From an uncultured Nitrospiraceae bacterium (GTDB lineage Bacteria; Nitrospirota; Thermodesulfovibrionia; Thermodesulfovibrionales; SM23-35), in the NCBI GenBank assembly GCA_963718855.1, contig CAVRAA010000013.1, positions 230,074-294,073 of the forward strand: DNA of 64,000 bases, read 5' to 3'. The first letter of the stretch is position 1. Every line of letters begins with the position of its first letter. The notes beneath the pieces were generated by a model that made no database searches, was not told the origin of the DNA, and was given only the letters and a program-made list of their open reading frames with translations. Made by a program: the position numbers and the translations under genes. Positions 45,181 to 64,000 of this stretch are shown here, piece by piece.

Positions 45181-45213
45181 GACAAAATCCGTAGAGAAAG
45201 ATAATCATTGTAA

Positions 45214-45752: not shown

Positions 45753-45842
45753 AGGGTCCAAGGGGTCGAGGATTCAAGGAGCCAAGTGGCAATATAATAT
45801 ACATACCTAACCCCTCGAAGCCTTGAATCCTTGAACCCTTGA
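45753..45842. repeat. Repeat family E copy 1 (inverted GGGTYCAAGGRTTCAAGG-type arms)
   Basis: Arms AGGGTCCAAGGGGTCGAGGATTCAAGGAGCCAAG and CTCGAAGCCTTGAATCCTTGAACCCTTGAC. The right arm encodes the last 11 codons of the S8 gene. Other copies at 53621-53694 and 60053-60103. Confidence 0.8.
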
Positions 45843-48108: not shown

Positions 48109-48888
48109 TTAGAACGAAAGATTTCCCCGCACGGGAATCGCATAATAGCCGGGAGAAACCTTGTACCGTTCAAACTCCGCGAGAAACAGCGGATTTTCAA
48201 TAACTGTTCTGCCCGGCATTAATTCCATCGTCATATCCATCAGGGAATTTTGTATCCTCCCTTTCAGCCGCGCAAAGATATCCTTACCTTCAAGCGAAAC
48301 AGCTTCTATAGTTAGTATATTGCCTTTTGCGGTCAATGAGCCAGTTGCCCTGTGAAAAAAATTGAGGGGCAGTCTTATGCCCGCAACCAATGAGGGTTCG
48401 AAGCTGACTTTGTCCGTTGCAAATATAATGGTGACTGAATCATTCTTTAGGCTGACCTTTCCCGAAATAGTCCCTGTCCCCTGGACCCCTATATTTTGAA
48501 GCAAGGGAATCCTGTTAATGTCTGCCTGTTTCACATCGAACAGCATCTGCCCTGCGCCTCTTTCCAGGCGGAGATTCCCGGAAAAAGTGCCGCCTCCAAT
48601 GCATCCGTCGGCGGTAAGATGCAATTTCCGTATCACAAGGCTCAGCGGGTCGATCCTGCTCCGGACGGAATCGAATTCAAGAAGCTCTCTGCCGGGGCTC
48701 CTGATTATTACCTTTTCGGCCCTCAGGGTATAAAATAATCCCTTTTCAAGCCCCGTTGTTTCCACGTGTATCCTGTCGGTATTAAAAGAATCTTCGATAA
48801 TGAATTGCAGTGATGCGGAAGAAAAGATTATCCAGGGGACCCAGAGAATGACAACAAGAGCAATGAAGCCAATAAGAATTTTTTTCAC
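48109..48888 (-). CDS. gspN: type II secretion system protein N-like
   Basis: 259 aa with a single N-terminal TM helix. Last position after gspM. Its start codon overlaps the stop of gspM. The assignment rests mostly on position. Confidence 0.5.
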   Translation of the reverse strand: MKKILIGFIALVVILWVPWIIFSSASLQFIIEDSFNTDRIHVETTGLEKGLFYTLRAEKVIIRSPGRELLEFDSVRSRIDPLSLVIRKLHLTADGCIGGGTFSGNLRLERGAGQMLFDVKQADINRIPLLQNIGVQGTGTISGKVSLKNDSVTIIFATDKVSFEPSLVAGIRLPLNFFHRATGSLTAKGNILTIEAVSLEGKDIFARLKGRIQNSLMDMTMELMPGRTVIENPLFLAEFERYKVSPGYYAIPVRGNLSF

Positions 48889-49382
48889 TTGTTCTTCAGA
48901 AAGGAGAGGATCAGGGAAATGTTCAGGAGCTCCGGGTTTTCAAAAGACTTTTTAACCGTGACTTTTTTGACTGTCAGCACCATGGGAGCATTTTTGATGC
49001 GGTAAAAAATATTTACCATTTCATTCATGGTGACCTTTTCGATATAAACATCAGCCTCTTCTTCAAATCCATCTTTGGTCTCCCGTTTCCCGGTCGACTT
49101 CACAGTCTTTACCCTGTCCTTTAATCCCACGGAAGAAAATACTTCTTCAACCGCCTGCGCGATCCCCTGTACATTGGATAATTCCTTCTTCGCTTCCACA
49201 GTGTTGACTTTCCGGCTGAGAAGCAAAAGGGCATCCTTGAGAACGATCATTTCATTCCTCTGCTCTTTCAGCTGCAGGAGGTGCTTGCGCTCATTCGCAA
49301 GGATCGTGAGTGCAACAGAGACCATAATAATAAATATGACAAGTCCCGCAATGCCGAGGATTATCTTCCTATCCTTCATCAT
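48885..49382 (-). CDS. gspM: type II secretion system protein M-like
   Basis: 165 aa bitopic protein (TM ILGIAGLVIFIIMVSVALTIL plus a coiled coil) between gspL and gspN. Confidence 0.55.
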   Translation of the reverse strand: MMKDRKIILGIAGLVIFIIMVSVALTILANERKHLLQLKEQRNEMIVLKDALLLLSRKVNTVEAKKELSNVQGIAQAVEEVFSSVGLKDRVKTVKSTGKRETKDGFEEEADVYIEKVTMNEMVNIFYRIKNAPMVLTVKKVTVKKSFENPELLNISLILSFLKNK

Positions 49383-49387
49383 CTCTC

Positions 49388-50452
49388 TTATCCTTTTTTC
49401 CCCTTTGCGGTGATGGTAAAAATCATGCTCCCGCGCGCGGAAGACTTTGAATCCACTATCGTGACATCGCCATAGATCGAATCCAGTTTCTGTTTGAACT
49501 GCTGGATGAGGCCCAATGAAGCCGCTTCCCCCTTCAGTGTAATCGCGTTTTTGTCTTCCATTATTTCATTGAAGACGACGCCCTCCCGTTCGAGCTGCGA
49601 GAGGTTCAACAGCAGCCCGAGTGCATCAATGCCTATGAAGACATCTTCTTTCTCCTGCAATTCCTTCAGGTGAGATTTCAACTGATACAGTTCATTAACG
49701 ATATTCTTCTCTCCCGGGAACAGCTCCATATATTGTTTCCGTATCTCATTCTTTATGGCTGCGCTTTCCTGACGAAGAGATACCATCTTTAACAGTACGT
49801 CTGCTGAAAAAACCACCGCAATGAATACCAGAAGCGCTGCTGTCACCCTTAATGATTTTCTTGTTCGCTCGATGTCACGGGTGTATGCGAAATCGCCTCT
49901 CCGCACATTGATAGTCGGTTTTTTTATTTCCTCACCTGCCAGGGCGATTCTCTCCTTCTCCTCAAACAGGACAGGAGTGAGAAGCTCCGGCAGCGTAAAA
50001 TCAGCAAGTTTTTTCCTCAGCTCAAGGCATGTTACATGTACCGGGTCGATGCCGTTGGAATGTAATGCATCGAGGACCTTCTTCAGGAGATTTTTTTCTA
50101 TATAGACCGCCAGAACCTGGACCGCGTTCCCGGATTTTCCTACGATGACATCGTCAAAAATCACCGCATTTGACCCGCCCAATATCACTCCGTCAAGTTC
50201 AAACGGCAGCGTCTCCCGGATCTTATCCTTGTCGGAAAAAGGCAGCTCGATAACCCTGAAATTAAACCATGCTGCAGGAAGACTTACGTATGCGCTTTCG
50301 ATCTGCCCCGTCTCCATCTCGAATGAAAAATCATGCTGGCCGGACATGGGGAAGCTCCTGGTTTCTTTCATCTCACAGATATTCCCTCTGACATGGAAAA
50401 TATACGCCGCGAGCTCTTTTTCTTTAAAATCGATAAAAAGGACCCTGCTCAT
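49388..50452 (-). CDS. gspL: type II secretion system protein L-like (actin-like cytoplasmic domain + TM + periplasmic domain)
   Basis: 354 aa with a central TM helix (VTAALLVFIAVVFSADVLL). Position after gspK. Confidence 0.6.
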   Translation of the reverse strand: MSRVLFIDFKEKELAAYIFHVRGNICEMKETRSFPMSGQHDFSFEMETGQIESAYVSLPAAWFNFRVIELPFSDKDKIRETLPFELDGVILGGSNAVIFDDVIVGKSGNAVQVLAVYIEKNLLKKVLDALHSNGIDPVHVTCLELRKKLADFTLPELLTPVLFEEKERIALAGEEIKKPTINVRRGDFAYTRDIERTRKSLRVTAALLVFIAVVFSADVLLKMVSLRQESAAIKNEIRKQYMELFPGEKNIVNELYQLKSHLKELQEKEDVFIGIDALGLLLNLSQLEREGVVFNEIMEDKNAITLKGEAASLGLIQQFKQKLDSIYGDVTIVDSKSSARGSMIFTITAKGKKG

Positions 50453-51357
50453 TAATATTCCTTCCAGTATTGGATATTCCTATTACGCGTATCGATAACC
50501 GTCTCGATGATCCTTTTCACACCTTCGGAGGAAGCTATAGATTTTATGGAAAACAGTGTGCCTTTAAATGTTATCGAAATTTGTGCGGATACCCTCCCGG
50601 TACCTATAATACTATCAAGTTCTCCTGCCGATTCAAAAGGCTTGCTCTTTCTATGATCAATTACCTGTTGAGCAAGTCTTTCATCAATTCCGTCTGCAAG
50701 ACACATAATGATCGGCTTCTTCGCACTGTTAATGTTGATAATAAGATGTTCTCTCTCTTTATCGACAGTTACATATGGCAGTAATGTATCATAATCCTTC
50801 CTGCTTATTCCATTCATGAGCAGCAGTTCATCAATACTGTGAAGAGCAGCGTTTTTTGCACCGGCTTCAGAATCGGGCAGCATCGCTTCGTTGTTCGGGT
50901 CTATCCAATCTACCACCCTATCCGCAACCTTCTTATCCAAAAAAAGGGAATCAAGCAATATTTGGAATGCATGATATACAGCGGTATTTAGATTCCCATT
51001 CGAAAAAACCAGAGAATTAATATTAAACTTGGAATTTTCATCCTCTATCCTTACTGTTATCGTTCCATTAAAATCTGTGAACGGATTTTCTACCGGCATT
51101 TCAATTTCGCTCTGAGTCTTATAATCCTCTATATTCGCAGCCTCTTTCATGACTCGGGCTATTACATTCACCCCGGATTGCGCCATGATCGAAAGCCGCT
51201 GTGAATCCCTCCAGTTGTAAAGGTTATTTGTCCCTGTATAGACACCATAGGAGAATTCAATTACCATTGCGGTAATCATGACCAAAGCCAATAAGGTTAC
51301 TATGAGAGCAATGCCTTGTTGATTATGTAACCGGCAAGACAAAACAGGACACGACAT
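50452..51357 (-). CDS. gspK: type II secretion minor pseudopilin GspK
   Basis: …QQGIALIVTLLALVMITAMVIEF… hydrophobic N-terminus lacking the Glu5-type motif. Large periplasmic domain with helix-hairpin-helix-like segments. The start is uncertain (ATG 51357 or 51498). Confidence 0.7.
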   Translation of the reverse strand: MSCPVLSCRLHNQQGIALIVTLLALVMITAMVIEFSYGVYTGTNNLYNWRDSQRLSIMAQSGVNVIARVMKEAANIEDYKTQSEIEMPVENPFTDFNGTITVRIEDENSKFNINSLVFSNGNLNTAVYHAFQILLDSLFLDKKVADRVVDWIDPNNEAMLPDSEAGAKNAALHSIDELLLMNGISRKDYDTLLPYVTVDKEREHLIININSAKKPIIMCLADGIDERLAQQVIDHRKSKPFESAGELDSIIGTGRVSAQISITFKGTLFSIKSIASSEGVKRIIETVIDTRNRNIQYWKEY

Positions 51358-51466
51358 TTGAGCGGATTTGAATACTTTCGAAGAAAGAATTCTCCTCGGA
51401 GGGGCCGACGAATGTCGGCCCCGAGAATGAGCGCAAATGTTGTGCCTTGTTTTCGTCCAAAGCACG

Positions 51467-52087
51467 TTAAATCTTCCTTCCGATCTTCGGGCTTGCAATG
51501 TCGGACAGAGTTACTGTTCTCCCCTTAATGGTAATCGCCAGACTAATCCTGATCTCCTCCGGCATATCCTTGTTAATGCCGGTATCCCATGTCTTCACCC
51601 AGGCATCGTTGAATTTCGCTTCGATGCCGAATGCCTCCATATCCTCAATGATATCCGCCTCTTCGGTTTCTTCCTTCCTGTACGGCGATTCGACCTTCTT
51701 GAAAAGAATCAATTTTCCTTCCTTATCTTCGATAAAATACGTGACCATCGAAACTCCGGGCCTTTGGGGAGAAAACGCAGTGAATTCAAGCCGCGTCGCC
51801 TGCTTTCCGTAAACGTCTCTGTCAACAATCCTGAAAAAAGTGTTTTGGTCACCGACAGCATAAAAAGTAGAATCAAGTTCCCGCTTGAGAATATCGAGCA
51901 CCCTTCTTGCTTCCTGCAATTTCACCATGGATTCGTCCATACCTTCAATGGCCTTATAACTTAAGAAAAAAGTGCTGTAGATCGCGGCGAGGAGAACCGA
52001 GAGTATTGCCACGGCAACAAGGATTTCTATGAGGGTGAAGCCGTGACTACACCGGCTTTGGTAACCGCAGGCTTTAGCCTGAGACAT
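51467..52087 (-). CDS. gspJ: type II secretion minor pseudopilin GspJ
   Basis: Prepilin-type N-terminus …SHG/FTLIEILVAVAILSVLLAAIYS. The leader MSQAKACGYQSRCSHG is encoded by repeat C copy 4. Confidence 0.75.
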   Translation of the reverse strand: MSQAKACGYQSRCSHGFTLIEILVAVAILSVLLAAIYSTFFLSYKAIEGMDESMVKLQEARRVLDILKRELDSTFYAVGDQNTFFRIVDRDVYGKQATRLEFTAFSPQRPGVSMVTYFIEDKEGKLILFKKVESPYRKEETEEADIIEDMEAFGIEAKFNDAWVKTWDTGINKDMPEEIRISLAITIKGRTVTLSDIASPKIGRKI

Positions 52088-52135
52088 TGAATGATCGCCA
52101 ATAAAAGAATTGCGCACACGAAAGTTTGCGGCTAC
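52061..52135. repeat. Repeat family C copy 4 (overlaps the gspJ 5' end)
   Basis: GTAACCGCAGGCTTTAGCCTGAG…GAAAGTTTGCGGCTAC. Confidence 0.8.
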
Positions 52136-52176
52136 AGTTATAAAAGGCTTCATATTAATGACAACATTATTTATAG

Positions 52177-52250
52177 AATCCCTCCTAACCTCCCTTTGCC
52201 AAAGGGAGGATTTATTCCCCTCTTTGGCAAAGAGGGGCAAGGGGAGATTT
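52177..52250. repeat. Repeat family B copy 3 (inverted orientation)
   Basis: Reverse complement aligns with 652-728 and 8986-9060. Confidence 0.85.
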
Positions 52251-52303
52251 TCTGATCTATGTAAATTCAATTTTAGACCCTTAATAATTTGACAAAGGCA
52301 TCC

Positions 52304-52720
52304 TTATTGAAAAACAAACTCATTCAGCCTTACCTCTTCTTTGCCTGCTGTAACCACAACGCCGATCTCGGATATCCCGGGATATGGCGATTCTTTGACA
52401 AAAGTCTCGTATGTGTATCGGTTATAGGGAACTTCGAATTCGCCTTTTTTGCTCTCCGGCTTCTTCTCCAGGTCGATCATTTTACCTTTGGCGAGAAGGG
52501 TTGCAACAGTAATTGTCTCCTGTCGTTCAACAAGCCCCAGATGGTAGTTGAGCGTATAAATCAGCGTAACAAGAAGCCCGCCCACCATCGCGAGGGCAAT
52601 CAGGACTTCAAGCAAGGTAAACCCTTTTTTAGAAAGGATGAAGGATGAAGGATGAAGGATGAAACAAAAATCCTTTTCTACTTCATCCTTCATCCTTCCT
52701 ACTTCATCCTTCTTATTCAT
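52304..52720 (-). CDS. gspI: type II secretion minor pseudopilin GspI
   Basis: …KKG/FTLLEVLIALAMVGGLLVTLIY prepilin motif. The unusually long leader is encoded by heptamer arrays. The start is ATG 52720 or 52693. Confidence 0.75.
   Translation of the reverse strand: MNKKDEVGRMKDEVEKDFCFILHPSSFILSKKGFTLLEVLIALAMVGGLLVTLIYTLNYHLGLVERQETITVATLLAKGKMIDLEKKPESKKGEFEVPYNRYTYETFVKESPYPGISEIGVVVTAGKEEVRLNEFVFQ
52635..52712. repeat. Repeat family D copy 2: inverted pair of GGATGAA heptamer arrays (52635-52663 versus 52681-52712)
   Basis: AGGATGAAGGATGAAGGATGAAGGATGAA … CTTCATCCTTCATCCTTCCTACTTCATCCTTC. Predicted long hairpin at the gspH/gspI junction. Confidence 0.9.
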
Positions 52721-53174
52721 CTTTAATTTTCACCTTTCCGCTTAGGTGGTACAAGGTGATCGTGAAGGTTTTTTCTCCTTTGCTCATCTTCACAGTGAGG
52801 TTTTCCCGGGTGCCGAGCGGCTCGAAAAAAAATATCAACTCGCCTTTTGACAATAGTCCTGATGACTGGGTTGCGACACTGGTCATATCATCAAATGTTC
52901 TTGTTTTCTCTCCCTCGGGTCCTTTCCACGAAACCTGGTTGGTATCCAGGTTAAAATTCATAAAAAACGTCTCTTTCCTCGCAGAAGCGCTGTCATAAAT
53001 ATACCGCAAAATTGAAGCCATTTCCCGGGATTCTGATTTGAGTTTATTTTCTCCGAACCCGCCGAAAGACGGCAGGACAACAGCCAAAACAAGCGAGACG
53101 ATAAAAAGGGCGACGATGAGTTCGAGAAGGGAAAAACCGTGACTACTGGATGTCCCAGTTCTTGATATCCGCAT
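52713..53174 (-). CDS. gspH: type II secretion minor pseudopilin GspH
   Basis: …SSSHG/FSLLELIVALFIVSLVLAVVLPSF prepilin motif. The start is uncertain (ATG 53174 or 53210) and overlaps the gspG 3' end. Confidence 0.75.
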   Translation of the reverse strand: MRISRTGTSSSHGFSLLELIVALFIVSLVLAVVLPSFGGFGENKLKSESREMASILRYIYDSASARKETFFMNFNLDTNQVSWKGPEGEKTRTFDDMTSVATQSSGLLSKGELIFFFEPLGTRENLTVKMSKGEKTFTITLYHLSGKVKIKDE

Positions 53175-53574
53175 CCTTGCCTTCCCCGCCTTCCCTGCCG
53201 TCCGCGCCATAGGAGATGATATCGAAATCTCCGTTCAATCCGGGAGATATGAAAATATAGGGATTGCTCCATGGGTCCGCCGGTATTCTCTTCTGTTCAA
53301 GATACCCGCCTTCCCGATATTTCTGGGGGATCTGGCCGGTCCCCGGCTGCTCCACGAGAGCTGAGAGTCCCTGTTCCGTAGAGGGATAAAACCCGTTATC
53401 GAGTTTAAACAGTTTGAGCGCGGTCTCAAAATTTTTTATCTGCACCTTTGCTTCGGCAATGCGCGCATCGTCCGTCCTTCCAATGATTTTGGGCGCGACA
53501 ATCGCTGCCAGCAGACTGAGGATGAAGACAACGACAATGATTTCGAGAAGGGTAAAACCTTTATTATTTTCCAT
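53143..53574 (-). CDS. gspG: type II secretion major pseudopilin GspG
   Basis: MENNKG/FTLLEIIVVVFILSLLAAIVAPK…, then …LDNGFYPSTEQGLSALV… and …DPWSNPY…SYGADG…, canonical for GspG. Confidence 0.92.
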   Translation of the reverse strand: MENNKGFTLLEIIVVVFILSLLAAIVAPKIIGRTDDARIAEAKVQIKNFETALKLFKLDNGFYPSTEQGLSALVEQPGTGQIPQKYREGGYLEQKRIPADPWSNPYIFISPGLNGDFDIISYGADGREGGEGKDADIKNWDIQ

Positions 53575-53620
53575 CGATTCCTCCTATATATCTATTATGC
53601 TCTTTCTATAAATTATACCG

Positions 53621-53694
53621 GGGTTCCAGGATTCAAGGGTTCCAGGGTTCGAGTGATATCACTGGAATCCTTGACCCCTTGAATCCTTGACCCC
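53621..53694. repeat. Repeat family E copy 2
   Basis: GGGTTCCAGGATTCAAGGGTTCCAGGGTTCGAGTG…CACTGGAATCCTTGACCCCTTGAATCCTTGACCCC, between gspF and gspG. Confidence 0.8.
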
Positions 53695-53700
53695 TATTCC

Positions 53701-54876
53701 TCACTTTATCAACTGGTTCAACTGGAATATCGGCAGAAGCACAGCAAGGACGATGAGTCCGACAATAAGTCCCATAACAAGAATCATGGTCGGCTCAAGA
53801 TACGAAAGCGCCTTCTGCACCCGTCGCGAAAACTCTTCTTCATACGAAGCCGCCGCCTTTTTCAGAATGGGGACCAACTGTCCGCTCCGCTCACCTGTTG
53901 CGATGAGCTGAAGCAGCACAGGAGGAAATCCTTCGAGGGAACTCGAAAGACGCGCTCCTTCTGCTACGCGTTTCCCCGCCTCATTCACCCTTCTCTCGAG
54001 CGCTTCATTCCCCATGGATTTGGCCCCGAGTTCAAGGGCTCTCAGCACGGGGAGCCCGCCTTCAAGCAAAAAACCCAATGTCCTTGCAAAACGTCCGAAA
54101 TAAAGGCTCTGGGGGATATTTCCCGGCAGCCGTAATATCAACCGGTCGATAAATAATCTGTTCTTCTCGCGCAGCCTTTTAAAGCCGAATACCGCTCCTG
54201 CAAGCACCCCTGTGATAAGCCACCAGTAATGCTGAACAATATCACTCGCCGCAATCAGAACGACCGTGATGAAAGGAAGAGCGCTCTGCGTATCCTTGAA
54301 AATCCTTGTTATCTTGGGGATGACGAAAGCGAATAAAAACGAAAGGACGACAAAACCAACGCAGACCATAAAAACAGGATAGATCATCGATGTCCTTACC
54401 TTTGATTTGAGGCTTGCCTGTGATTCGAGAAAATCCGCCATATTTCCGAGCACGTTGTCGAGATTTCCGCTTGCCTCTCCTGCCGCAACCATGTGCACAT
54501 AGAACTCCGGGAAAATGGTTTGGTATTCCTCGAATGCTTTCGAAAGGCTTGATCCCGAGGCGAGCTTTTCCTTAATGCTGACCAGCACATTCTTCCAGAA
54601 TCCTCTCTGTTCCTCTGCAATCGAAGTAATGGCATCCATCAGGGTCACCCCTGACGAAAGGAGGGTAGACAGCTGCCTCGTTATCGACGGGAGGAGTGAG
54701 ACGTCAGGTCTCTGGGATATGGCGAACCGTCTTTGATAGACAGCTCCCTGCACATTTTTCGGGTAGAGTCCGGATTCCCTGAGACGTACTGCAGCATCCT
54801 TTGCGCTGTTCGCCTCTATGGTCCCTGTTGCCTGAGAGCCGTCGGTTTTATAGCCCTTATACTGAAATATCGGCAT
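53701..54876 (-). CDS. gspF: type II secretion inner-membrane platform protein GspF
   Basis: 391 aa. Duplicated GspF domains, three TM segments, and the ending …LPIFQLNQLI. Confidence 0.92.
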   Translation of the reverse strand: MPIFQYKGYKTDGSQATGTIEANSAKDAAVRLRESGLYPKNVQGAVYQRRFAISQRPDVSLLPSITRQLSTLLSSGVTLMDAITSIAEEQRGFWKNVLVSIKEKLASGSSLSKAFEEYQTIFPEFYVHMVAAGEASGNLDNVLGNMADFLESQASLKSKVRTSMIYPVFMVCVGFVVLSFLFAFVIPKITRIFKDTQSALPFITVVLIAASDIVQHYWWLITGVLAGAVFGFKRLREKNRLFIDRLILRLPGNIPQSLYFGRFARTLGFLLEGGLPVLRALELGAKSMGNEALERRVNEAGKRVAEGARLSSSLEGFPPVLLQLIATGERSGQLVPILKKAAASYEEEFSRRVQKALSYLEPTMILVMGLIVGLIVLAVLLPIFQLNQLIK

Positions 54877-56377
54877 AGTCTTTCTGCGTTACCCTGAGGA
54901 CCTCTTCAAGGGTGGTGATCCCACCCACGACTTTCCCGATGCCGTCCTGACGAAGGGTCTTCATCCCTTTTGAAATTGCGTAATTTTTTATGCTCTGTGA
55001 ATCGATTTTGTCGGTGATCATGGGACGTATTTCATTATCGATAACAAGGAACTCAAAAATTCCCGTCCTCCCCAGGTATCCCCTGTTCTTGCATTTATCG
55101 CATCCTGTGCCGCGATACAAAACGTCGGGGATACTACTGAAATAGGACATTTCAAGTTCAGACGGCTTATACGAAACCTTGCAGTGAGGACAGATCGTCC
55201 TTACGAGTCTCTGCGCAACAACTACGGTCAATGATGATGCAACAAGGAATGGTTCGATTCCCATGTCGATGAGGCGCACGAGCGCGCTTGGTGCATCGTT
55301 GGTATGAAGAGTACTGAGAACGAGGTGGCCGGTAAGGGATGCCTGCATCGCTATTTCAGCTGTTTCAAGGTCTCTTATCTCGCCGACCATAATGACATCC
55401 GGGTCCTGCCTGAGAATCGACCTGAGTCCTGTGGCAAAGGTAAGCCCTATTTTCGGACTCACCTGTATCTGACCGATTCCTTTCAGCTCATATTCAATGG
55501 GGTCTTCAACGGTTATGATATTTTTTTCTACGGTATGGATTCTGTTGAGTGCTGCATAGAGGGTCGTCGTCTTGCCGCTCCCGGTCGGGCCTGTGACAAG
55601 GATGATGCCGTCAGGCTTCTGAAGATATTCTTCGAGTTTCCGGGCGTCCTCCCTGTCGAATCCCACCTCCCACATACCCAGCAGCCCCTGCTTCCTGTCC
55701 AGGAGTCTCAGCACGGCTCTCTCTCCATGTGATGTCGGGATGACCGAGACCCTGATGTCTATGTCCCTGCCGCCGAGCAGGAGTCGTATTCTGCCGTCCT
55801 GAGGCAGCCGCTTTTCGGCGATATCCAGGTTCGACATAATTTTTATCCGGCTTATCAGGGCGTCCTGAATAATCTTGGGAGGCGTCAGAACTCTATGAAG
55901 GACCCCGTCTATGCGCAGTCTCACATCGAGTTCCTTTTCATATGGTTCGATGTGGATATCGCTCGCCCTTTCTTTGACTGCCTGAAGGAGCAGGGCGTTG
56001 AGGAGCCTGATGATCGGGGCATCTTCCGTCAGTTCGAGGAGGTCTTTCGGCGCCTCGAATTCCGTTGCGACAGTCGAGAGATCTTCTCCGCTGATGGTAT
56101 CCATCACCTCTTCGGCAGATCCCATCTGTCCGTAGAACCGGTTGATCGCGTCGAGGATAACACCCGGGGTTGCCCTTACTGCGTGGGGCTTCAGCCCGAG
56201 CATCTTCGAGGCTTCAGAAAGTGCAAGCAGACCCCTTTCATCTGCAACAGCGCCGATCAGCTCGGAATCACTTTTCCTGATAGGAAAGATCTGATTTCCT
56301 TTTACAAAAGGAAGGGGGATGTTCTTGAGGAGTGAGATATCGACATCTTCATCTTTTATAACGTCAATAACGTCCAT
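54857..56377 (-). CDS. gspE: type II secretion ATPase GspE
   Basis: 506 aa. Walker A GPTGSGKTTT, Asp and His boxes, a tetra-Cys zinc motif (CPHCK…CDKCK) and an N1E-type N-terminal domain. Confidence 0.95.
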   Translation of the reverse strand: MDVIDVIKDEDVDISLLKNIPLPFVKGNQIFPIRKSDSELIGAVADERGLLALSEASKMLGLKPHAVRATPGVILDAINRFYGQMGSAEEVMDTISGEDLSTVATEFEAPKDLLELTEDAPIIRLLNALLLQAVKERASDIHIEPYEKELDVRLRIDGVLHRVLTPPKIIQDALISRIKIMSNLDIAEKRLPQDGRIRLLLGGRDIDIRVSVIPTSHGERAVLRLLDRKQGLLGMWEVGFDREDARKLEEYLQKPDGIILVTGPTGSGKTTTLYAALNRIHTVEKNIITVEDPIEYELKGIGQIQVSPKIGLTFATGLRSILRQDPDVIMVGEIRDLETAEIAMQASLTGHLVLSTLHTNDAPSALVRLIDMGIEPFLVASSLTVVVAQRLVRTICPHCKVSYKPSELEMSYFSSIPDVLYRGTGCDKCKNRGYLGRTGIFEFLVIDNEIRPMITDKIDSQSIKNYAISKGMKTLRQDGIGKVVGGITTLEEVLRVTQKDYADISV

Positions 56378-56380: not shown

Positions 56381-58609
56381 TCATTTCATCTTCATGATAT
56401 AATTCGGCTCTGCATACTCCACTTCCCTATAACTACCCAATCTCTGTGCCGCCTCTTTCACGTCCTGTCCTGTCTTCAGCCGTATTTGATACAACCCTTT
56501 CGGCTTCAATGGAGCAATAACCGATGCGCCTTCGGCTGAAATAATCTCTGCGGCCCTTGCTTCATTGGTATCGTCGGTAAATTTAACGAGCACTTCTCCC
56601 TGCTTGTACGTATCCTCAACCCTCGCGAACTCTATTTTCTTGGCCTCTGTCAGGCGTTCGATGTCTTCGGCCCCCTTTATTATATGCGGGGTCAGAAAAA
56701 CGATAAGGTTTGTCTTATTCTTGGATATACCTTTTTGAGTGAAAAGCCATCCCAGGACAGGAATATCCCCGAGAAACGGCACCTTCGTCACATTCTCCTC
56801 ATCCTTTTCCTGCATGAGTCCTCCGATAACAACGGTCTGGTTGTCCTTCACCACAACAGACGTCTTTGTAGAACGCTTCGTTATGGTGGGACCGACAGTG
56901 ATTGTGATAACCGCTGACTCCTGAATGACCGCTGAAATCTCCTGATAAAGGTCGAGCTTCACGTAATCTCCCTCGGTAATCTGAGGGGTCAGCTTCAATT
57001 TAATGCCGACATCCATCCTCTCGATATTGTTCAGAACGGTATTTGTTGTCGTGACATCCCGTTCCCTTGACGATATAAAGGGGACATTTTCACCGACGAT
57101 AATCTCTGCTTCCTTATTATCAGACGTCAAAATCTGCGGCGTAGATAGAACATTCACCGCGTCTTTGAATTCGTTAAGGCTGAACACCGCGGCAAATCCC
57201 GGGATGGTAAGGGTTGAAGTAGTAGGGGTTCCATCTGAGCCGGTTGTCGTAAACGGGATATCAATGAAGTTGCCCAGACCGCCGACCGACATTCCGGAAA
57301 GCCCCTGTACAATATTCTGCACTGCCGCCGAGTCGATGGTTCCAAATCCGCCGATCAATACGGGATCGCCGTCTTTCTCTGCTGTCAGCCGCCATTTTGC
57401 CCCAAGTTCTCTCAGCTTGTTAATCGATGCCTCGACAATCATCGCTTCAACATATACCTGCCGTCTCCGTTTATCAAGCTGTTTGATTACCTGCAGGAGG
57501 CTCTGATAATCCGCCGGTGCAGCAATGACAACAAGGGAATTCGTCGCCTTATCAGCAGTAATTGTTATCTTACTCCCCAGTTCAAAGGGACTTTTGGGGG
57601 CCTGTCCGGCCTTCGCAGACGGTGCGATCCCTGTAATCATCGTTTCCAGAACTTTGGAGAGTTCGGTTGCATCCGCATACTCAAGAAAATAGACATTGAT
57701 CTTGCTCGTTGCCTCGGGCAGCGGAATATCAAGAAGAACAATCATCCTCTTCATCGCATCCTTTTCCTGCTTATCTGCAATCAGCACTACTGCGTTAAGC
57801 CTCGTGTCGGCAAAAACACTCCCTCTCGCATCTTCAACCGAACCTGCAGTTACTGTTTCGCCCGGCCTCGGCACGCGACCGGCAGCAGGCTGCCCTTTAC
57901 TGCTTAACGCGAGAGACTCGGAAATAATCTTCACGATGTCCTCAGCGCTTGCATACTTGAGGAGGATGAGCTCCGGCTCCTCGACCCCCTGCTTATCAAT
58001 GGTATCGAGAATTTTGAGAACCTTTTCGATATTGTTTGAGGTATCAACAACCATGATCATATTGCCGGGCCCGAATGAAGAAATATGTCCGTCTTTGGAA
58101 ATAAGAGGCTGGAGGAAACCGACTGCTTTCGCGGCGGATATTGATACCAATGGAATGAGTCGTATAATATATGCATCGCTTACCGTCATCCCCCCTTCTG
58201 TGAGCATTTCCGTACCCGATTGTTTTGCCTGGGAGACCGGAATAATCTTATACACTTTTCCGGAAGGGACGATGGTAAATCCTTTTAATTCGAGGACAGA
58301 GGTGAAGAGACTGAATGCGTCGTCAACCGAGAGTCTGGATGGAGCAATAATCGTGACAGTGCCCTTGACTTTGTCGTCAAATACAAAATTCTTGCCGGTT
58401 ACTTCACTGATAAATTTCACCACAACAGATATGTCGACATCGACAAAGTTGAAGGTGACCTGCTTGGAATCTTTAAGCCGGCTCTCCCCTGTTTCCGCTA
58501 AGGCATTCCCCATCAAGGATAAAGGATGAAGGATGAAGGATGAAAAAAATACCAACAGAAAGATGAAAGATGAAAGATGAAGGATGAAAATGGAATTTTT
58601 ATTTTTCAC
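56381..58609 (-). CDS. gspD: type II secretion secretin GspD with an extra C-terminal subtilase-prodomain-like domain
   Basis: 742 aa. N0-N3 domains (VTFNFVDVDISVVVKFISEVTGKNFV…). Secretin core (…VVIGGLMQE…VPFLGDIPVLGWLF…LIVFLTPHII). The last 75 aa align with the S8 prodomain. GTG start lies 1 nt after the upstream stop. The signal peptide is encoded by heptamer arrays. Confidence 0.93.
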   Translation of the reverse strand: MKNKNSIFILHLSSFIFLLVFFSSFILHPLSLMGNALAETGESRLKDSKQVTFNFVDVDISVVVKFISEVTGKNFVFDDKVKGTVTIIAPSRLSVDDAFSLFTSVLELKGFTIVPSGKVYKIIPVSQAKQSGTEMLTEGGMTVSDAYIIRLIPLVSISAAKAVGFLQPLISKDGHISSFGPGNMIMVVDTSNNIEKVLKILDTIDKQGVEEPELILLKYASAEDIVKIISESLALSSKGQPAAGRVPRPGETVTAGSVEDARGSVFADTRLNAVVLIADKQEKDAMKRMIVLLDIPLPEATSKINVYFLEYADATELSKVLETMITGIAPSAKAGQAPKSPFELGSKITITADKATNSLVVIAAPADYQSLLQVIKQLDKRRRQVYVEAMIVEASINKLRELGAKWRLTAEKDGDPVLIGGFGTIDSAAVQNIVQGLSGMSVGGLGNFIDIPFTTTGSDGTPTTSTLTIPGFAAVFSLNEFKDAVNVLSTPQILTSDNKEAEIIVGENVPFISSRERDVTTTNTVLNNIERMDVGIKLKLTPQITEGDYVKLDLYQEISAVIQESAVITITVGPTITKRSTKTSVVVKDNQTVVIGGLMQEKDEENVTKVPFLGDIPVLGWLFTQKGISKNKTNLIVFLTPHIIKGAEDIERLTEAKKIEFARVEDTYKQGEVLVKFTDDTNEARAAEIISAEGASVIAPLKPKGLYQIRLKTGQDVKEAAQRLGSYREVEYAEPNYIMKMK
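58516..58588. repeat. Repeat family D copy 3 (GGATGAA/AGATGAA heptamer arrays inside the gspD signal-peptide codons)
   Basis: AGGATAAAGGATGAAGGATGAAGGATGAAAAAAATACCAACAGAAAGATGAAAGATGAAAGATGAAGGATGAAAA. Confidence 0.9.
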
Positions 58610-58610: not shown

Positions 58611-58976
58611 TTATTTATTTCTCATCTTTTTCATTATTGACGTGAAAATTGCCAACAGTTCATTTGTCTCTGATAATAGCGATTTCAGTTCAAGGCTACT
58701 GCTTATTGTACCATCAAATAATAGTTCAAGCCAGTATGAAGTTTCATCGAGTTCCTGGATAATGATACCTAGTTTGGAAATAAATTCTGCATTTGAACGA
58801 GCACGAGATGCTTCACGATAATTTGCACCAACAGATGTGCCGGATTTCAAGAACTGATGCCCGATTACTTGAGCATCTTTAGTTTTTGGAAGTGATGAAT
58901 ATAAGCGAATTATTCTTAACGCATACTGTTTGGTTCTGCTCCTTAAATCTTCCGCTTTTCTTCCTTCATCCTTCAT
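58611..58976 (-). CDS. four-helix-bundle protein (23S rRNA intervening-sequence protein / Avd-like family)
   Basis: 121 aa. …QFLKSGTSVGANYREASRARSNAEFISKLGIIIQELDETSYWLELL… matches the family I recall as PF05635/TIGR02436. The gene is wedged between gspC and gspD. Confidence 0.8.
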   Translation of the reverse strand: MKDEGRKAEDLRSRTKQYALRIIRLYSSLPKTKDAQVIGHQFLKSGTSVGANYREASRARSNAEFISKLGIIIQELDETSYWLELLFDGTISSSLELKSLLSETNELLAIFTSIMKKMRNK

Positions 58977-58991: not shown

Positions 58992-59861
58992 TTACTGTAT
59001 CTGATACGTCATTGTCATCCTTGCGCCCGATCGAATAAGGTCAATCTGGACCCTGTCGAGCCCCCTGAGCGCAGTAAATGCCTGCAGTGCCCTTTCGGGA
59101 TTGGAGATGTCATAATCATTAATCCTCAGCAATACGTCGCCGTCCTGGAGCCCGAGACTCTGATAAATACCGCCGGGCTTTACCTCGCTCAGAATAAAAC
59201 CCTCATCCCTTCCGCTGACGTTATTCGGCCTGAGTCTTGCATCTGTCATCATCTGGGCCGGATTTCCGATAGCCTGCTGCAATTTTCTCTGATCAACAAC
59301 ATAAGCCCCTCTCCCGATTTTCTGTGCAAATACTGCAGAAGGGGCGGTTCCTGATGCCTGTTTATGAATCTCTTTCACCCTCACGTCTTCAAGCGGTATT
59401 TCTATTGTCCGCGCATCCTTTTTGATCATTGCTTTATCTTTCTTCACCGCATGAAGCGTCCCGACGCCGAAAACAGACTCGCCGATCCTGAATATCTCCT
59501 GCACCCCGGTATTGTCCTTAAAAACACCGTAGCTGAGCTCTTTGATGCCGGTCACAGTGCCGATCAGCGTTACATTCGCCGCCTGGTTCCCCTGGTTCGC
59601 CGCAACGGTCAAAGGCTTTATCTCGCCGGCGGCAAAGCCGAAAGGGTTGTTCTTCAGAATGGGGGCATACTCCATAAGTTGGACCGTTCTTTCAGGCTGC
59701 GATGAATCCGCAGTTGTACGCATCTTCTCTTTTTGCATTTTTCTTTTTTCAACAGAGATGGAAATGCCGTCCCTGACAAGCATAAGCGCCGACACTAAGA
59801 GCAGTATGCCAATGATGATATTCAGATAAAAGATGTTTCTCTTCGTAAGGAGCCCTGTCAA
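58992..59861 (-). CDS. gspC: type II secretion protein GspC (TM + HR-like region + PDZ domain)
   Basis: 289 aa. N-terminal TM helix and a C-terminal PDZ (…GFILSEVKPGGIYQSLGLQDGDVLLRINDYDIS…). First gene of the operon. Confidence 0.8.
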   Translation of the reverse strand: MTGLLTKRNIFYLNIIIGILLLVSALMLVRDGISISVEKRKMQKEKMRTTADSSQPERTVQLMEYAPILKNNPFGFAAGEIKPLTVAANQGNQAANVTLIGTVTGIKELSYGVFKDNTGVQEIFRIGESVFGVGTLHAVKKDKAMIKKDARTIEIPLEDVRVKEIHKQASGTAPSAVFAQKIGRGAYVVDQRKLQQAIGNPAQMMTDARLRPNNVSGRDEGFILSEVKPGGIYQSLGLQDGDVLLRINDYDISNPERALQAFTALRGLDRVQIDLIRSGARMTMTYQIQ

Positions 59862-60112: not shown

Positions 60113-61900
60113 TTATTTTTTCAGCGGGAGATTTTTCAGAAGCTTGGAATCGTCTGCAATAATCTTTTTCACAGACTGACTCTGGATATTGAACGAATTC
60201 GCTTCGTACGACATCGCGTTAATCGGAGTAATGGTATTCCCATTAAGTTCAAACACCGTCCATAAGGTCCCTCCCTGATTCACAGGGACATTGAATGTAG
60301 CAATGAGGCCATCCCCCCGGTACACCTTTACCTGAGCGCCGGAAATGGAGAGGGCGTCGCTTTCTGATGAACTCTTGTTGGAGTAATCATGCACTGAGAA
60401 CCTGTAGACTCCGCTTATCTGCTGGTAAATCGTCGTTGTTTCCGGCCCGACACTGTCAGTATCGTCCAGATCCAAATCTGCATATATAATGTCGTTCACT
60501 GCATATGTTTCGTTAGAATAATAAATATGGAACCTGCTGCTGTCAGGGGTCGGTCCGGTAAGGTGTGAATCCAGATCAGAAGGTTCTTCCCCCCATGAAA
60601 GTATAATGCGTGTTTGACCGGCCTGAATAATCGGCGTTATGGTTCCCTGCTGATTGCCGGTTGAGGTACCCCCGATACAGATAACAGTAAAGAAGGCATT
60701 CGTGTACCCGCTTTTCAAAGCCTCTGCCGTATAGTGGCCTGCAGCGAGGTCCGTGAAACTAAAGAAACCTCCGCTCAGTGTTGCACCCGTAGCTGCAATC
60801 GGACCTGAAGTGACATTTATGCCGCTGCGCAGGTTGATTGTCACGCCTTCAACTCCCTGCCCGTTAAACGCATCAACGATAGTCCCGCTTACAGTGCCTG
60901 TGCCGGAATGGTCTGTATCTATCTGAAGTACGGGTTCAAGGGTCGTAGTGCCGCTTTCCACTGCAACATTTTCATAGAGTGCAGTAACGAAGCCCTCCTT
61001 CACAAACTCAACCCTGTATCCGCTGCCCTCAGGGACCGGGAGAGAATATGTTCCATCGTCTATGGTCACGCCTGAGGCGACTACGGTATTCTGGCTGTAA
61101 ACGGTTATGGAAACCCCGGGGAGGGGCGCAGTGGTCAGCGCATCGTTTACTCTCCCCGATAATACGCTTGAGGAAGCTGATAATGTAGTGGCAGACCTCT
61201 CCACGGTATTGGTGTCGATATTCCCGCTCTCGTCCTTGGCCCTTACTACAAAATAATAGGGGGTATTCTGGTTAAGACCGGTCACGATGAATGATGTCTG
61301 ACCTGGCGTTGTAGTGTAACTCGGCGACGAAAAGTTTTCTCCTCCCTGCACTGTTGCCATATAGACAAGATATTGTATGCCGGCCTGAGGTGTCACATTG
61401 TCTGTTGCCGGTGGCCATACAAGTGTCAGGGATGTGGCAGCAATTGATGATATATCTGACAAACCCGAGAAAACAGGCGGAACCGTATCCTGCGCTACCA
61501 TGGTAATGGGCAAGGTAACCGCTGTACCGTTCATGTCTGCAAAGGCATCTCCTGTATAATTCACATGACCGGCTGCATCCCTCGCATCGACTATAAAATG
61601 CCTGTTGCTGCCGTTCGGAACTGTGAATGTCTCAGACAGTGAAAACTGCCCGTTGACAGGAACAATGCGCTCAATAGTAGCCATATCCGGTGCTGATATT
61701 TCAAACCGTATGCTGGCTACTTCCGGCGGTATTGAAGCTGATTCAGTTAATAATTTCCCGTTCAGATCAGCGGCTTTGGTATTGCCGAGCGCTATCGTTA
61801 CGTTCGTGGTGCCTGAAGAAAGCGATGAAGAACCGCCTCCTCCGCAACTCAGATTCATTGCCATCAACACAAAAACCACTATCGCACATAATTTTTTCAT
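60113..61900 (-). CDS. large surface/periplasmic lipoprotein: FN3, two carboxypeptidase-regulatory-like domains and a DUF2135/YfaP-like C-terminal domain
   Basis: The start was moved to MKKLCAIVVFVLMAMNLSCGGGGSS (lipobox LSC). FN3 (…LTLVWPPATDN…YYFVVRAKDESGN). Two segments of the SG(R/T)V.DA…G..GV.I.L type. The C-terminus …RIILSWGEEPSDLDSHL…DDTDSVGPETTTI… is YfaP-like. Confidence 0.65.
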   Translation of the reverse strand: MKKLCAIVVFVLMAMNLSCGGGGSSSLSSGTTNVTIALGNTKAADLNGKLLTESASIPPEVASIRFEISAPDMATIERIVPVNGQFSLSETFTVPNGSNRHFIVDARDAAGHVNYTGDAFADMNGTAVTLPITMVAQDTVPPVFSGLSDISSIAATSLTLVWPPATDNVTPQAGIQYLVYMATVQGGENFSSPSYTTTPGQTSFIVTGLNQNTPYYFVVRAKDESGNIDTNTVERSATTLSASSSVLSGRVNDALTTAPLPGVSITVYSQNTVVASGVTIDDGTYSLPVPEGSGYRVEFVKEGFVTALYENVAVESGTTTLEPVLQIDTDHSGTGTVSGTIVDAFNGQGVEGVTINLRSGINVTSGPIAATGATLSGGFFSFTDLAAGHYTAEALKSGYTNAFFTVICIGGTSTGNQQGTITPIIQAGQTRIILSWGEEPSDLDSHLTGPTPDSSRFHIYYSNETYAVNDIIYADLDLDDTDSVGPETTTIYQQISGVYRFSVHDYSNKSSSESDALSISGAQVKVYRGDGLIATFNVPVNQGGTLWTVFELNGNTITPINAMSYEANSFNIQSQSVKKIIADDSKLLKNLPLKK

Positions 61901-61916
61901 AAGAGTCCTCTGTATA

Positions 61917-62744
61917 TCATGGGAAAATAGGCACAATAGTCACCGGCGTACCATTACTTGGTGGTGGCAGATTCTGTATCGGTGGTGTCAGATTCTCTAT
62001 CGGCGGTAACGCCGGAAGAGTTTCTCTCGTAATCGGCGCGCTGTCCTTCATCAGCAGCGGTGCAGACTGCACTCCTGCAGGCTTCCGTTCTTCCAGAATT
62101 GATTTTTTGTCGACTTCAGGGGAATTCTGCAGTTCAGTGGCGTCAATCAGTTGATTCAGGAGTGTCATCGGGGTAGGAAAAGACATAGGCGCTTTGTTCT
62201 GGAACACCTTCCCCGTAGTACCCTTTTCAAGTCTCACTACGCCGACAATGGCAGGATCGATGTTCGAAATATCCACTGCTCCCTCGATCACCGTTATAAT
62301 GCTGACTGCTATGCCGTCTTCAACCCCTGTCGCCGTTATAAAATAGGTCCCCCTCGCTGCAACTACTGCGGTGGGTGTATGCACTTCGAATTCATTATTG
62401 CCGACCAGAGACCTCAGTTTCCCTTCCACAAGGTTGAATACGGATTTTCCCTTCTTCTTGTCCCCTCCTGCACCGAGATATTCCCTGATGACAACCCTGG
62501 ATTTTTCAGCGAGCGTCAGGATGCTGTCGTCCTTAAAAAAAATCTTCAGCCTCGATGCCTCTCTGGTCTCAACGGTGTCCCTGAGCATAATCGTATCCTT
62601 CAGAACTGCATCCATTGTTTTGTTGTCTCTCAGGATCAATGCCTTGCCTTTCAGCGCCACGATACGTCCGGCATCGTCTGCTGCAAAGGCCAAGACCGGC
62701 AGAACAAGCATCAGCAGTACAAGAAGTATTACTCTCTTTTTCAT
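61917..62744 (-). CDS. FecR-domain protein with a signal peptide and a Pro-rich C-terminal tail
   Basis: 275 aa. …GRIVALKGKALILRDNK…LKDTIMLRDTVETREASRLKIFFKDDSILTLAEKSRVVI… resembles the FecR (PF04773-like) fold. The tail is LPALPPIENLTPPIQNLPPPSNG. Confidence 0.65.
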   Translation of the reverse strand: MKKRVILLVLLMLVLPVLAFAADDAGRIVALKGKALILRDNKTMDAVLKDTIMLRDTVETREASRLKIFFKDDSILTLAEKSRVVIREYLGAGGDKKKGKSVFNLVEGKLRSLVGNNEFEVHTPTAVVAARGTYFITATGVEDGIAVSIITVIEGAVDISNIDPAIVGVVRLEKGTTGKVFQNKAPMSFPTPMTLLNQLIDATELQNSPEVDKKSILEERKPAGVQSAPLLMKDSAPITRETLPALPPIENLTPPIQNLPPPSNGTPVTIVPIFP

Positions 62745-64000
62745 AGCTGTACCCTCACCATAAGCGTCACGATATCCCTGTCATAATCAAAGTAACTGAT
62801 ATTCGAGCTGTTGCGCTCATACAAATACCCTGCGGTAATGTCTATTTTCCGATACAGAGACTTTGTGAGATTGACGGAACAGGTGCGGGTAATATCCCTC
62901 CGTTTGCTCTCAGTACCAGGGAGCTCGCCTTTATAGTGCTTTCTGTAATACTGGCCCCACAGGTCGCCTGTCCAGCCTTTGCCAAAATCGAAACGCAGAT
63001 ACGCATCTCCTGCGTTGCCGTCATACTTCCAGTACGTTTTATCGGCTCCGTCGTCGTCATAGGCATAGCCTACGCCGACAAGAACGGCTTTGTGAAGCTG
63101 AATATACTGCGTTATCCCGAAAAGGTTATTTGCCCCGTCTCTCTCTGAATTTGTCTGAAACAGCTCTGTGTCCTTGAAATCTTTCTGCTGATACCGGTAA
63201 CGGAGATTGGTGAAAAAGCCCTTTCCCTCTGCAATGGTGATGACCGGCTGGATGCTGTTCGAAACCAGATAGGTTTCATTGTCTACCGTCGTATATTCAA
63301 ATGTATAATTCAGCCTCAGGAGAACGTTTTTCATAACAGCATAGCTTATCAGTATACCGGGCAGATGCTGCTGAACGTTGAAATCATCCAGCCGGCTCTG
63401 CAAACTCTGGTAGAACGAATAGGTAAGGTCAATGCTGACGTTGTCTTTCATGAGCGGCGTGTATCTGCCGTCCAGGTAAAAGACCGTACGCCAGTCGGAT
63501 TTCCCTGATATGCCTTCAGCCAATGCCCCGTCGGACGGTTTGAGGACAACATTGCTGTCATACTGCTCTCCTACCGACAGGCCGAGCGCCCAGTTTTTCT
63601 GCCCCTCTTTTTTCGCCTCGCTCTCCCGCTTTGCTATTTCGCTGATATAGGCGTCGGCAGGGCCGGACAATTCTCCGCCCGGGGACAATGCCTTCGCAGT
63701 CTCGAAAAAATCCTTTGCTTCGCTATAAATACCTTTATGGTAATACAGCACTCCCAATTCGAAGTTTGCTCTTGGCGACTGAGGATCGAGGGTCAAGGCC
63801 TTTTTCAGAAACGTCTCTCCCTCTTTTTCATTCCCTGATTTGCTGAGGGCGACGCCAAGATAAAGGGTTGCCGGCGGATCATCGGGTTTTACTTCGAGCG
63901 CGGACTTAAAATCGCCTATGGCTTTCTGATATTCTTTTTGGTCGAGAGAGAGGATTCCTCTGGCAAGGCTGGCTTCGTACTTTGCAGTGTCCCCCGCATA
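62741..64000 (-). CDS. TPR-repeat + C-terminal outer-membrane beta-barrel protein (5' end outside the window)
   Basis: The reading frame stays open upstream of the tracked TTG start to position 64000 and encodes TPR units (…YEASLARGILSLDQKEYQKAIGDFKSALEVKPDDPPATLYLGVALSKSGNEKEGETFLKKALTLDPQSPRANFELGVLYYHKG…). The C-terminal ~300 aa show an alternating beta-strand pattern with …YDSNV… and end in …LMVRVQL. Confidence 0.7.
   Translation of the reverse strand, partial: YAGDTAKYEASLARGILSLDQKEYQKAIGDFKSALEVKPDDPPATLYLGVALSKSGNEKEGETFLKKALTLDPQSPRANFELGVLYYHKGIYSEAKDFFETAKALSPGGELSGPADAYISEIAKRESEAKKEGQKNWALGLSVGEQYDSNVVLKPSDGALAEGISGKSDWRTVFYLDGRYTPLMKDNVSIDLTYSFYQSLQSRLDDFNVQQHLPGILISYAVMKNVLLRLNYTFEYTTVDNETYLVSNSIQPVITIAEGKGFFTNLRYRYQQKDFKDTELFQTNSERDGANNLFGITQYIQLHKAVLVGVGYAYDDDGADKTYWKYDGNAGDAYLRFDFGKGWTGDLWGQYYRKHYKGELPGTESKRRDITRTCSVNLTKSLYRKIDITAGYLYERNSSNISYFDYDRDIVTLMVRVQL

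Follow-up and report, generated by a model that had tools for sequence, protein, structure and literature searches.

A subtilase prodomain-like tail on a Nitrospirota type II secretin, a possible tether for S8 proteases encoded beside it

How the folded substrates of type II secretion systems are selected has long been an open question, and we know of no general signal. The C-termini of secretins, where the S-domains are found, lie in the periplasm and outside the barrel in solved secretin-pilotin structures. Pseudomonas AprI and the Inh proteins of Serratia and Erwinia are periplasmic inhibitors that are encoded together with secretion genes and a protease. Subtilases of the S8 family are made with prodomains, and some prodomain-like proteins act on subtilases as separate chains. 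In the protease that Aeromonas ORF2 acts on, the C-terminal Lys of ORF2 reaches the catalytic centre (PMC5638518), and SUB1-ProM and the stand-alone I9 inhibitors use an E-x-N cap (PMC6993865). Proteins with Cys-containing C-terminal signals, which are processed by myxosortase-type CPBP proteases, require a type II system to reach the cell surface (Haft preprint). Here we describe a stretch of 64,000 nucleotides from an uncultured Nitrospiraceae bacterium (GenBank assembly GCA_963718855.1, contig CAVRAA010000013.1, positions 230,074 to 294,073 of the forward strand), referred to below as the window. Its type II secretin gene, gspD, encodes an extra C-terminal tail that resembles the prodomain of S8 subtilases, and an S8 subtilase is encoded at the end of the same operon.

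GspD of the window contains an N0 domain, Secretin_N repeats and a Secretin domain, scores above the cut-off of the equivalog model TIGR02517 (543 bits, cut-off 351) and is encoded among gspC through gspN, which identifies it as a type II secretin. The TIGR02517 match covered positions 1-600 of the 600 in the model and finished at residue 654. Since the model was covered end to end at this point, a complete secretin precedes the tail, which is extra. The parts of the gene are as follows.

56381-58609, minus strand: gspD, a 742 aa type II secretion secretin with N0, three Secretin_N and Secretin (482-645) domains and an extra C-terminal tail (Pfam, NCBIfam)
56609-56674, minus strand: linker past the last secretin strand, residues 646-667, ...GAEDIERLTEAKKIEFARVEDT, with conserved K, F and A positions (tail alignment)
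56384-56608, minus strand: prodomain-like tail, 75 residues at the GspD C-terminus (PF22148, BLASTP, AlphaFold, Foldseek)
56402-56410, minus strand: E-P-N, residues 734-736, invariant in the tails (alignment, hhalign)
56384-56401, minus strand: C-terminal strand YIMKMK, residues 737-742, equivalent to P6-P1 of a prodomain (residue frequencies, hhalign)

Translation of 56384-56608 on the minus strand gave 75 residues ending ...VEYAEPNYIMKMK, with the stop codon directly after them. An initial annotation of the window had given exactly these coordinates for the tail. Its coordinates for the matching S8 segment, 47796-48020 on the minus strand, start at A61 and are one codon off; the peptide that it quoted corresponds to 47793-48017.

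The initial annotation had proposed that the tail is homologous to the fervidolysin/I9-type subtilase prodomain, and Pfam, BLASTP, AlphaFold and Foldseek agree on this. BLASTP aligned the tail to the co-operonic S8 protein without gaps, with 29/78 residues identical and an E value of 2e-14. The Pfam family PF22148 (Fervidolysin_NPro-like) matched residues 658-736 of GspD when the whole protein was searched (E 3.7e-13, 50.1 bits, cut-off 21) and scored 56.6 bits against the same cut-off of 21 when the tail was searched on its own. The same family matched residues 61-130 of the S8 protein with an E value of 3.3e-16, likewise clear of the curated cut-off. Judged by these alignments, the similarity between the tail and the S8 prodomain is well beyond chance. 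Pfam detected no S8 domain in GspD, and the protein therefore lacks the precursor organisation, with autocleavage, of the prodomain family. The tail had no Secretin_N match in Pfam, and the idea that it is a permuted secretin N-domain was rejected on this ground.

The last 89 residues of GspD were modelled with AlphaFold using an alignment of 43 diverse tails. The model had a mean pLDDT of 83 and the order strand-helix-strand-strand-helix-strand, and the linker appeared as a low-confidence helix (tail-model residues 2-12, pLDDT <50 at residues 1-9). Searching PDB sequences with the tail profile returned spurious designed-repeat matches only, so that a fold search was needed. The best Foldseek matches in the PDB included the prosegments of subtilisins BPN' and E (1spb_P, TM 0.72 on target; 3whi; 1scj_B). 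PC1/3 prodomains, both alone and bound to furin, and Tk-subtilisin propeptides were also matched, as were the Aeromonas ORF2 chaperone (3wqb_B) and fervidolysin (1r6v).

The BPN' prosegment sequence was checked against 1spb_P and then aligned with the tail by hhalign. Tail residues 65-85 fell on BPN' residues 53-73; the score was weak and the register unambiguous. The A-E-P-N-Y of the tail aligned with BPN' residues 68-72, so that E81 and N83 of the tail model (GspD E734 and N736) correspond, by alignment only, to BPN' Glu69 and Asp71. In subtilisin-propeptide complexes, Glu69 and Asp71 cap two surface helices of the catalytic domain (PMC6993865). The last residue of GspD aligned with BPN' Y77, which is P1 at the prosegment cut site, in line with the initial annotation, which had GspD ending at the expected prodomain boundary. 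The flanking S8 proteins continue from the P1-equivalent position into VIPDD..QWGL or IIPND..QW, the kind of sequence with which a mature subtilase usually begins. Since the tail stops at P1, where the S8 proteins run on into their mature N-terminus, it resembles a prodomain that has already been processed.

To see how widely the tail occurs, we examined the best 120 homologues, which are 64-96% identical and come from Nitrospirota and Thermodesulfovibrionales metagenome-assembled genomes (MAGs). The tail was present in 118 of them, and the remaining two stop before or inside it. In a second clade, from Nitrospiraceae, Candidatus Sulfobium and Thermodesulfovibrionales MAGs, it was found in 119 of 120 homologues. 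In a large Nitrospirota group, GspD normally carries the tail. The tails all grouped together in a neighbour-joining tree, and the prodomains of the flanking proteases fell outside this clade. This single clade points to an old fusion that was inherited vertically and maintained rather than to recurrent copying from the adjacent gene. The recurrence of the tail in both clades and the separate grouping of the tails rule out an assembly chimera as well as a recent local duplication. The initial annotation had named three outcomes that would speak against it, namely missing profile homology, a common S-domain segment and a loss of similarity in orthologues, and none of them was observed.

Across the 43 diverse tails, the invariant columns were A9, E19, L21, F24, L58 and A-E-P-N-Y, the last being the sole invariant block. 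Y directly followed E-P-N in 118/118 homologues, and the residues after E-P-N were conserved as Y-hydrophobic-hydrophobic-K/R-hydrophobic-Q/K. The six residues after E-P-N had no confident structure in the isolated AlphaFold model, with pLDDT <50 for residues 87-89. An end that is conserved yet, as modelled, unstructured is typical of a binding strand. Among the 120 homologues, the chain ended 6 residues after E-P-N in 53, 9 residues after it in 51 and 16 residues after it in 8. We also observed an 823-aa secretin (L019, 4019-6487) in which the tail is internal and a long extension lies beyond it.

The S8 subtilase gene of the window is co-operonic with the gsp genes, as the initial annotation had stated. 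The gspN gene ends with TAA (48111-48109); the S8 ATG (48101) follows 7 nt later, and the stop codon is overlapped by the Shine-Dalgarno sequence AAGGAGG. The short spacing and the overlapping Shine-Dalgarno sequence indicate that S8 is co-transcribed, and S8 is probably translationally coupled to gspN. The following features were assigned in the S8 gene.

45807-48101, minus strand: S8 subtilase, co-operonic and the likely cargo, with a lipoprotein signal peptide, prodomain, catalytic domain, fn3 and C-terminal sorting signal (Pfam)
48051-48101, minus strand: S8 lipoprotein signal peptide, MMRYIISVCIILSIIAC, lipobox IIAC (read from sequence)
47793-48017, minus strand: true N-terminal prodomain of S8, YKAGEILVKF...VEYAEPNYMVKAT (BLASTP, Pfam)
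45810-45980, minus strand: S8 C-terminal sorting signal, GGGGGGGC, with a hydrophobic helix and the basic tail RRVNKSR; Cys-containing CTERM type (read from sequence)

Peptidase_S8 was matched with an E value of 1.3e-54, in addition to PF22148 and fn3, and autocleavage is predicted directly ahead of VIPDDARFPEQWGL. The catalytic domain is split by an insertion of ~200 residues (~377-590; ~46431-47072 of the window, minus strand) between AAPG and GTSMATP. The insertion had no Pfam family match, and the Peptidase_S8 match falls in two stretches.

Related loci were compared in GTDB species-representative genomes. In the clade of the window, the gene order is pilQ, S8, gspC, gspD with tail, gspE-gspN and a second S8 gene. 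One or two S8 genes flank the gsp operon in 10/17 tail-bearing loci, on both sides in L002, L003, L004, L007, L014 and L020 and on one side in L001, L005, L006 and L008. The complete flanking S8 proteins all have a lipobox, equivalent to that of the window S8, and a GGGC-helix-RRR end; this C-terminus was observed for six upstream S8 proteins with complete genes, in L001, L003, L004, L005, L007 and L009. No S8 gene was found in the available sequence of the tail-less relatives L013 and L021. The pilQ gene upstream of the S8-gsp cluster encodes a PilQ-type secretin with AMIN and no prodomain-like tail, and was observed in L002-L005, L007, L014 and L020 (in L004 at 1493-3763).

A metagenome scan with the pattern E[VI][EQ]YAEPN revealed 47 more secretin fusions. 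Since the motif is part of the pattern, E-P-N conservation in L030-L109 was not counted as evidence. An S8 gene was present in 9/16 loci of the close clade. In the distant fusion clade, the available flanks contained an S8 gene in 0/31 loci, several of which had the full 10 kb on each side. S8 adjacency belongs to the clade of the window, not to the fusion as such.

The tail profile was also searched against 1.84 billion representative proteins, which yielded 3,061 matches, including ordinary N-terminal prodomains. Three further contexts emerged, namely secretin tails, second copies in S8 proteases and stand-alone proteins, and in these the protein nearly always terminates with the domain, 5-10 residues past E-P-N. 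Secretins P0121, P0123 and P0143 carry two tandem prodomain-like domains or a SPOR domain after the tail, the SPOR domain being found in P0121 and P0143. The SPOR domain binds peptidoglycan. The contigs of P0135 and P0143 were too short to reveal S8 neighbours. S8 proteases P0138, P0142, P0145 and P0163 have their second copy at the extreme C-terminus, ending a few residues past E-P-N, and in P0159 the second copy lies downstream of the catalytic domain but short of the extreme end. No gsp genes were found near those encoding P0138 and P0145 (L028, L029), and a secretion link for S8 proteases with a C-terminal second prodomain-like domain was rejected for this reason. The search also returned four giant proteins of ~3,000 residues (P0130, P0131, P0160, P0228) with two or three prodomain-like domains and S8-like similarity over ~2,000 residues.

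The third context comprises dozens of proteins of 100-140 residues in which a prodomain-like domain follows a signal peptide; most of the signal peptides have a lipobox. The stand-alone genes adjoined S8 genes in 3/3 separate look-ups. In the metagenome loci with enough downstream sequence, they lay directly upstream of an S8 gene whose product has its own prodomain in 18/18 cases. In L076-L109 (e.g. L104, 1176-4037), the two genes form a widespread module in which the gene for a ~125-170-residue lipoprotein often overlaps the downstream S8 gene, and L085 has two such pairs (4254-7005 and 9779-12536). The pair stands beside gsp genes in four loci. In L102, one strand carries gspE-gspK and the other the stand-alone domain, S8 and a CPBP gene, and gspC follows; L104 has the order stand-alone domain, S8, gspC, gspD; and in L095 and L086 gspE and the stand-alone gene are transcribed divergently. 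A stand-alone/S8 pair beside gsp genes is the unfused counterpart of the window arrangement. The occurrence of fused and unfused forms suggests, by the fusion argument, that the module has a functional link with the protease as well as with the type II machinery.

Drawing on the homology, the predicted fold, the match in motif and end point, the conservation, the gene linkage and the split versions, we propose, with about even confidence, that the tail is a secretin-tethered periplasmic prodomain that acts in trans by binding the neighbouring S8 lipoproteases. We infer binding, inhibition, periplasmic location and the order of events as follows. The tail would be a trans-acting subtilase prodomain homologue at the periplasmic side of the secretin, a location suggested by the S-domain position of secretins and by the SPOR extensions in some homologues. 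Fifteen copies, one per secretin subunit, would ring the base of the secretin barrel in the periplasm. The tail would grip the catalytic domain of the gsp-adjacent S8 protease through an E-x-N/D helix cap and an extended strand that occupies the active-site cleft as P6-P1. The bound protease would stay inactive and gathered at the secretion machine up to its type II export to the cell surface, the secretin-anchored module would remain behind, and the protease would be active outside only. The initial annotation had a prodomain mimic displayed in or on the pore. This is unlikely, as secretin C-termini are periplasmic and outside the barrel and a SPOR domain follows the tail in some homologues.

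Several observations weigh against this proposal. By analogy with other secretins, the C-terminus would lie outside the barrel and off the substrate path, so that the channel would not contain a bound protease. Fifteen stoichiometric sites are too few to inhibit a large cargo flux. At P2/P1 the tails have M/I then Q/K, compared with A/L/K then T/A/D in the neighbouring prodomains. Approximately half of the orthologues have 3-10 extra residues beyond the P1 position, which means that a free carboxylate at P1 is dispensable. The lack of S8 genes beside the fusion in the distant clade belongs here too. Identity between tail and prodomain was 0.377 within genomes and 0.341 between genomes, a difference that comes partly from the very divergent L016 and L018 tails; being confounded in this way, it is not usable, and tail-prodomain coevolution or gene conversion was rejected as a line of evidence.

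Alternatively, the tail could have a structural or assembly role alone, as an extra ring, a stabiliser, a substitute for an S-domain/pilotin pair or a peptidoglycan spacer, with no protease bound. We consider this unlikely. In its favour, 0/31 loci of the distant clade have an adjacent S8 gene, the tail occupies the S-domain position at the secretin C-terminus, the SPOR extensions and tandem copies in some homologues are as in a spacer or scaffold, and secretin N-domain rings are built of small alpha/beta domains. However, the tail has no Secretin_N similarity, and its most conserved part is the E-P-N cap and the strand that follows, which in prodomains are solely protease contacts. In addition, the stand-alone, free-ended domain is always paired with an S8 gene.

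A further possibility, and in our judgement quite an unlikely one, is that the tail is a built-in type II cargo receptor, in which case the secretin would use a copy of the prodomain of its protease substrates to recognise them. The stand-alone lipoproteins near S8 and gsp genes may then be the unfused form of the proposed receptor. In a stronger variant, the tail-bound S8 lipoprotein may play the part of the pilotin, so that cargo and pore are targeted together to the outer membrane.

Two other explanations appear very doubtful. The tail might be a foldase, an intermolecular chaperone that folds or refolds S8 at the secretin with inhibition as a by-product. Prodomains do catalyse folding, and ORF2, which is among the fold matches of the tail, is a trans chaperone of a secreted S8 protease. 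However, each neighbouring S8 protein retains its own N-terminal prodomain, so that an external foldase seems unneeded, and type II systems are known to export folded proteins. To a similar degree we doubt that the tail is a substrate or switch, in which S8 would cleave the tail or its extensions (3-10 residues, or a SPOR domain) and thereby mature, release or regulate the secretin. The conserved strand is like a subtilase substrate, half of the orthologues have prime-side residues and some have a whole SPOR domain there; but 53/120 orthologues, including that of the window, end exactly at P1 with nothing to cleave, and a cleavage site needs no whole folded prodomain-like domain. Homotypic docking, in which the tail pairs with the lipid-anchored prodomain of the cargo or mimics a prodomain signal read by, for example, the PDZ-like region of GspC, is highly improbable: the tail and the S8 prodomain are homologous, GspC does have such a region and prodomain-driven dimerisation has reportedly been seen in a Plasmodium subtilase, but no sign of self-association by the prodomains studied here was found, and the C-terminal residues of the tail are basic or polar, unlike the usual hydrophobic PDZ ligands, with variable extensions tolerated.

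On the minus strand of the window, the order of the operon is gspC, a four-helix-bundle gene, gspD, gspE-F-G-H-I-J-K-L, a gspM-like gene, gspN and S8. The remaining assigned genes are listed below.

58992-59861, minus strand: gspC, with a C-terminal PDZ-like region (NF041515 GspC_delta, 143 bits against a cut-off of 150; TIGR01713)
48109-56377, minus strand: gspE, F, G, H, I, J, K, L, M and N (open reading frames; NCBIfam GspL and GspN; synteny with L001-L021)
45214-45747, plus strand: CPBP (Rce1-like) intramembrane protease, myxosortase-related (NCBIfam)

The gspM gene was assigned from position and orthology alone. The PDZ region of GspC matches HtrA-family models. The gene between gspC and gspD (58611-58976, minus strand) belongs to the TIGR02436 four-helix-bundle family; it occurs at the same site in L003 and is missing from most related loci. 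Upstream of gspC, at 60113-63796 on the minus strand, are genes for a CarboxypepD_reg and fn3 lipoprotein, a FecR-like protein and a protein with TPR and beta-barrel regions. The same trio recurs in L030 and L031 between the upstream S8 gene and gspC, and this position suggests that a second S8 gene probably lies just past the end of the window.

The C-terminus of the window S8 protein has the Cys, hydrophobic helix and basic residues that form the substrate signature of Mrt/Cys-CTERM sorting. The CPBP protein encoded nearby scored 71 bits with MrtS (cut-off 130) and 66 bits with Mrt_core (cut-off 100), and is under every curated Mrt cut-off. A CPBP orthologue adjoins gspN in L005, and in L102 a CPBP gene follows the S8 gene. 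The CPBP protein is a candidate processing enzyme for the C-terminal signal of S8. The lipobox of S8, its GGGGGGGC signal and the sub-cut-off CPBP protein may represent an undescribed Nitrospirota class of Cys-CTERM sorting tied to the type II system. Between the CPBP gene and aroC, at 43867-45328, there are overlapping, interrupted open reading frame fragments that are transposase-like by appearance. This region looks like an insertion-sequence remnant, and in L005 the CPBP gene abuts aroC directly.

What gives the arrangement its weight is that a secretin carries a domain whose relatives tightly bind one enzyme family, members of which share its operon. If the tail binds S8, the 89-residue tail and the protease would form a simple pair for studying cargo capture at a secretin, and would provide a handle on how a dangerous protease is silenced in the periplasm and handed over for export. 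Binding would also explain a large, unstudied family of free prodomain-like lipoproteins encoded beside S8 genes. Should the tail serve as a cargo receptor, no earlier cargo-recognition element on a secretin would have been molecularly defined and readable from sequence. Without S8 binding, the tail would exemplify a protease prodomain fold taken over as a component of a membrane machine.

The initial annotation knew of no described secretin with this fusion. Our full-text searches of the published literature likewise turned up neither an account of a secretin fused to a prodomain nor any reference to PF22148. The fusion recurs widely, and automated Pfam annotation already flags PF22148 in these secretins.

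Among the described systems, the S-domain/pilotin pairs PulD-PulS and GspD-AspS likewise involve a periplasmic-side C-terminal appendage on a type II secretin, and pilotins are lipoproteins, as is S8, the expected partner of the tail. In contrast to S-domains, the tail has the fold of a protease prodomain, and no sequence relation to known S-domains was detected. The tail matched no pilotin-binding family in Pfam and NCBIfam, a comparison in which S-domains and pilotins had no profile of their own, and the open reading frames of the operon, compared with NCBIfam, included nothing pilotin-like. AprI and Inh share the logic proposed for the tail: the inhibitor stays in the periplasm, and its gene accompanies those for secretion and the protease. 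They differ in belonging to type I operons, in targeting metalloproteases, in having an unrelated fold and in being free proteins. The GlyGly-CTERM/rhombosortase (VesB) and MYXO-CTERM/myxosortase systems need a type II system, and the window S8 has a comparable Gly-rich Cys motif, helix and basic tail. As in the myxosortase systems, a CPBP gene and a type II system stand beside S8, but the CPBP protein falls under the curated Mrt cut-offs.

The subtilase prodomains themselves (PF22148, MEROPS I9, BPN'/E, PDB 1SPB and 1SCJ) share with the tail the profile, the predicted fold and, by alignment, the cap pair and the strand leading to P1. The tail differs in sitting on the C-terminus of a secretin, so that it is no intramolecular chaperone and is never released by autocleavage, and in forming a clade of its own. 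The closest counterparts are the trans-acting mimics, namely Aeromonas sobria ORF2 (3WQB), POIA1, yeast PBI2, Arabidopsis SPI-1, TgMIC5 and Plasmodium SUB1-ProM. Like the tail, they place the prodomain fold on a separate chain, their genes adjoin the protease gene, and their free C-terminal residues reach the active site, which for the tail is suggested by the alignment to P1. However, the mimics are small soluble proteins, and the tail is covalently tethered to an outer-membrane secretin of ~650 residues. The neighbouring S8 proteases also keep their own prodomains, unlike the ASP protease that is served by ORF2. Collectively, these comparisons suggest that the tail is best described as a putative tethered member of the class of trans-acting prodomain mimics.

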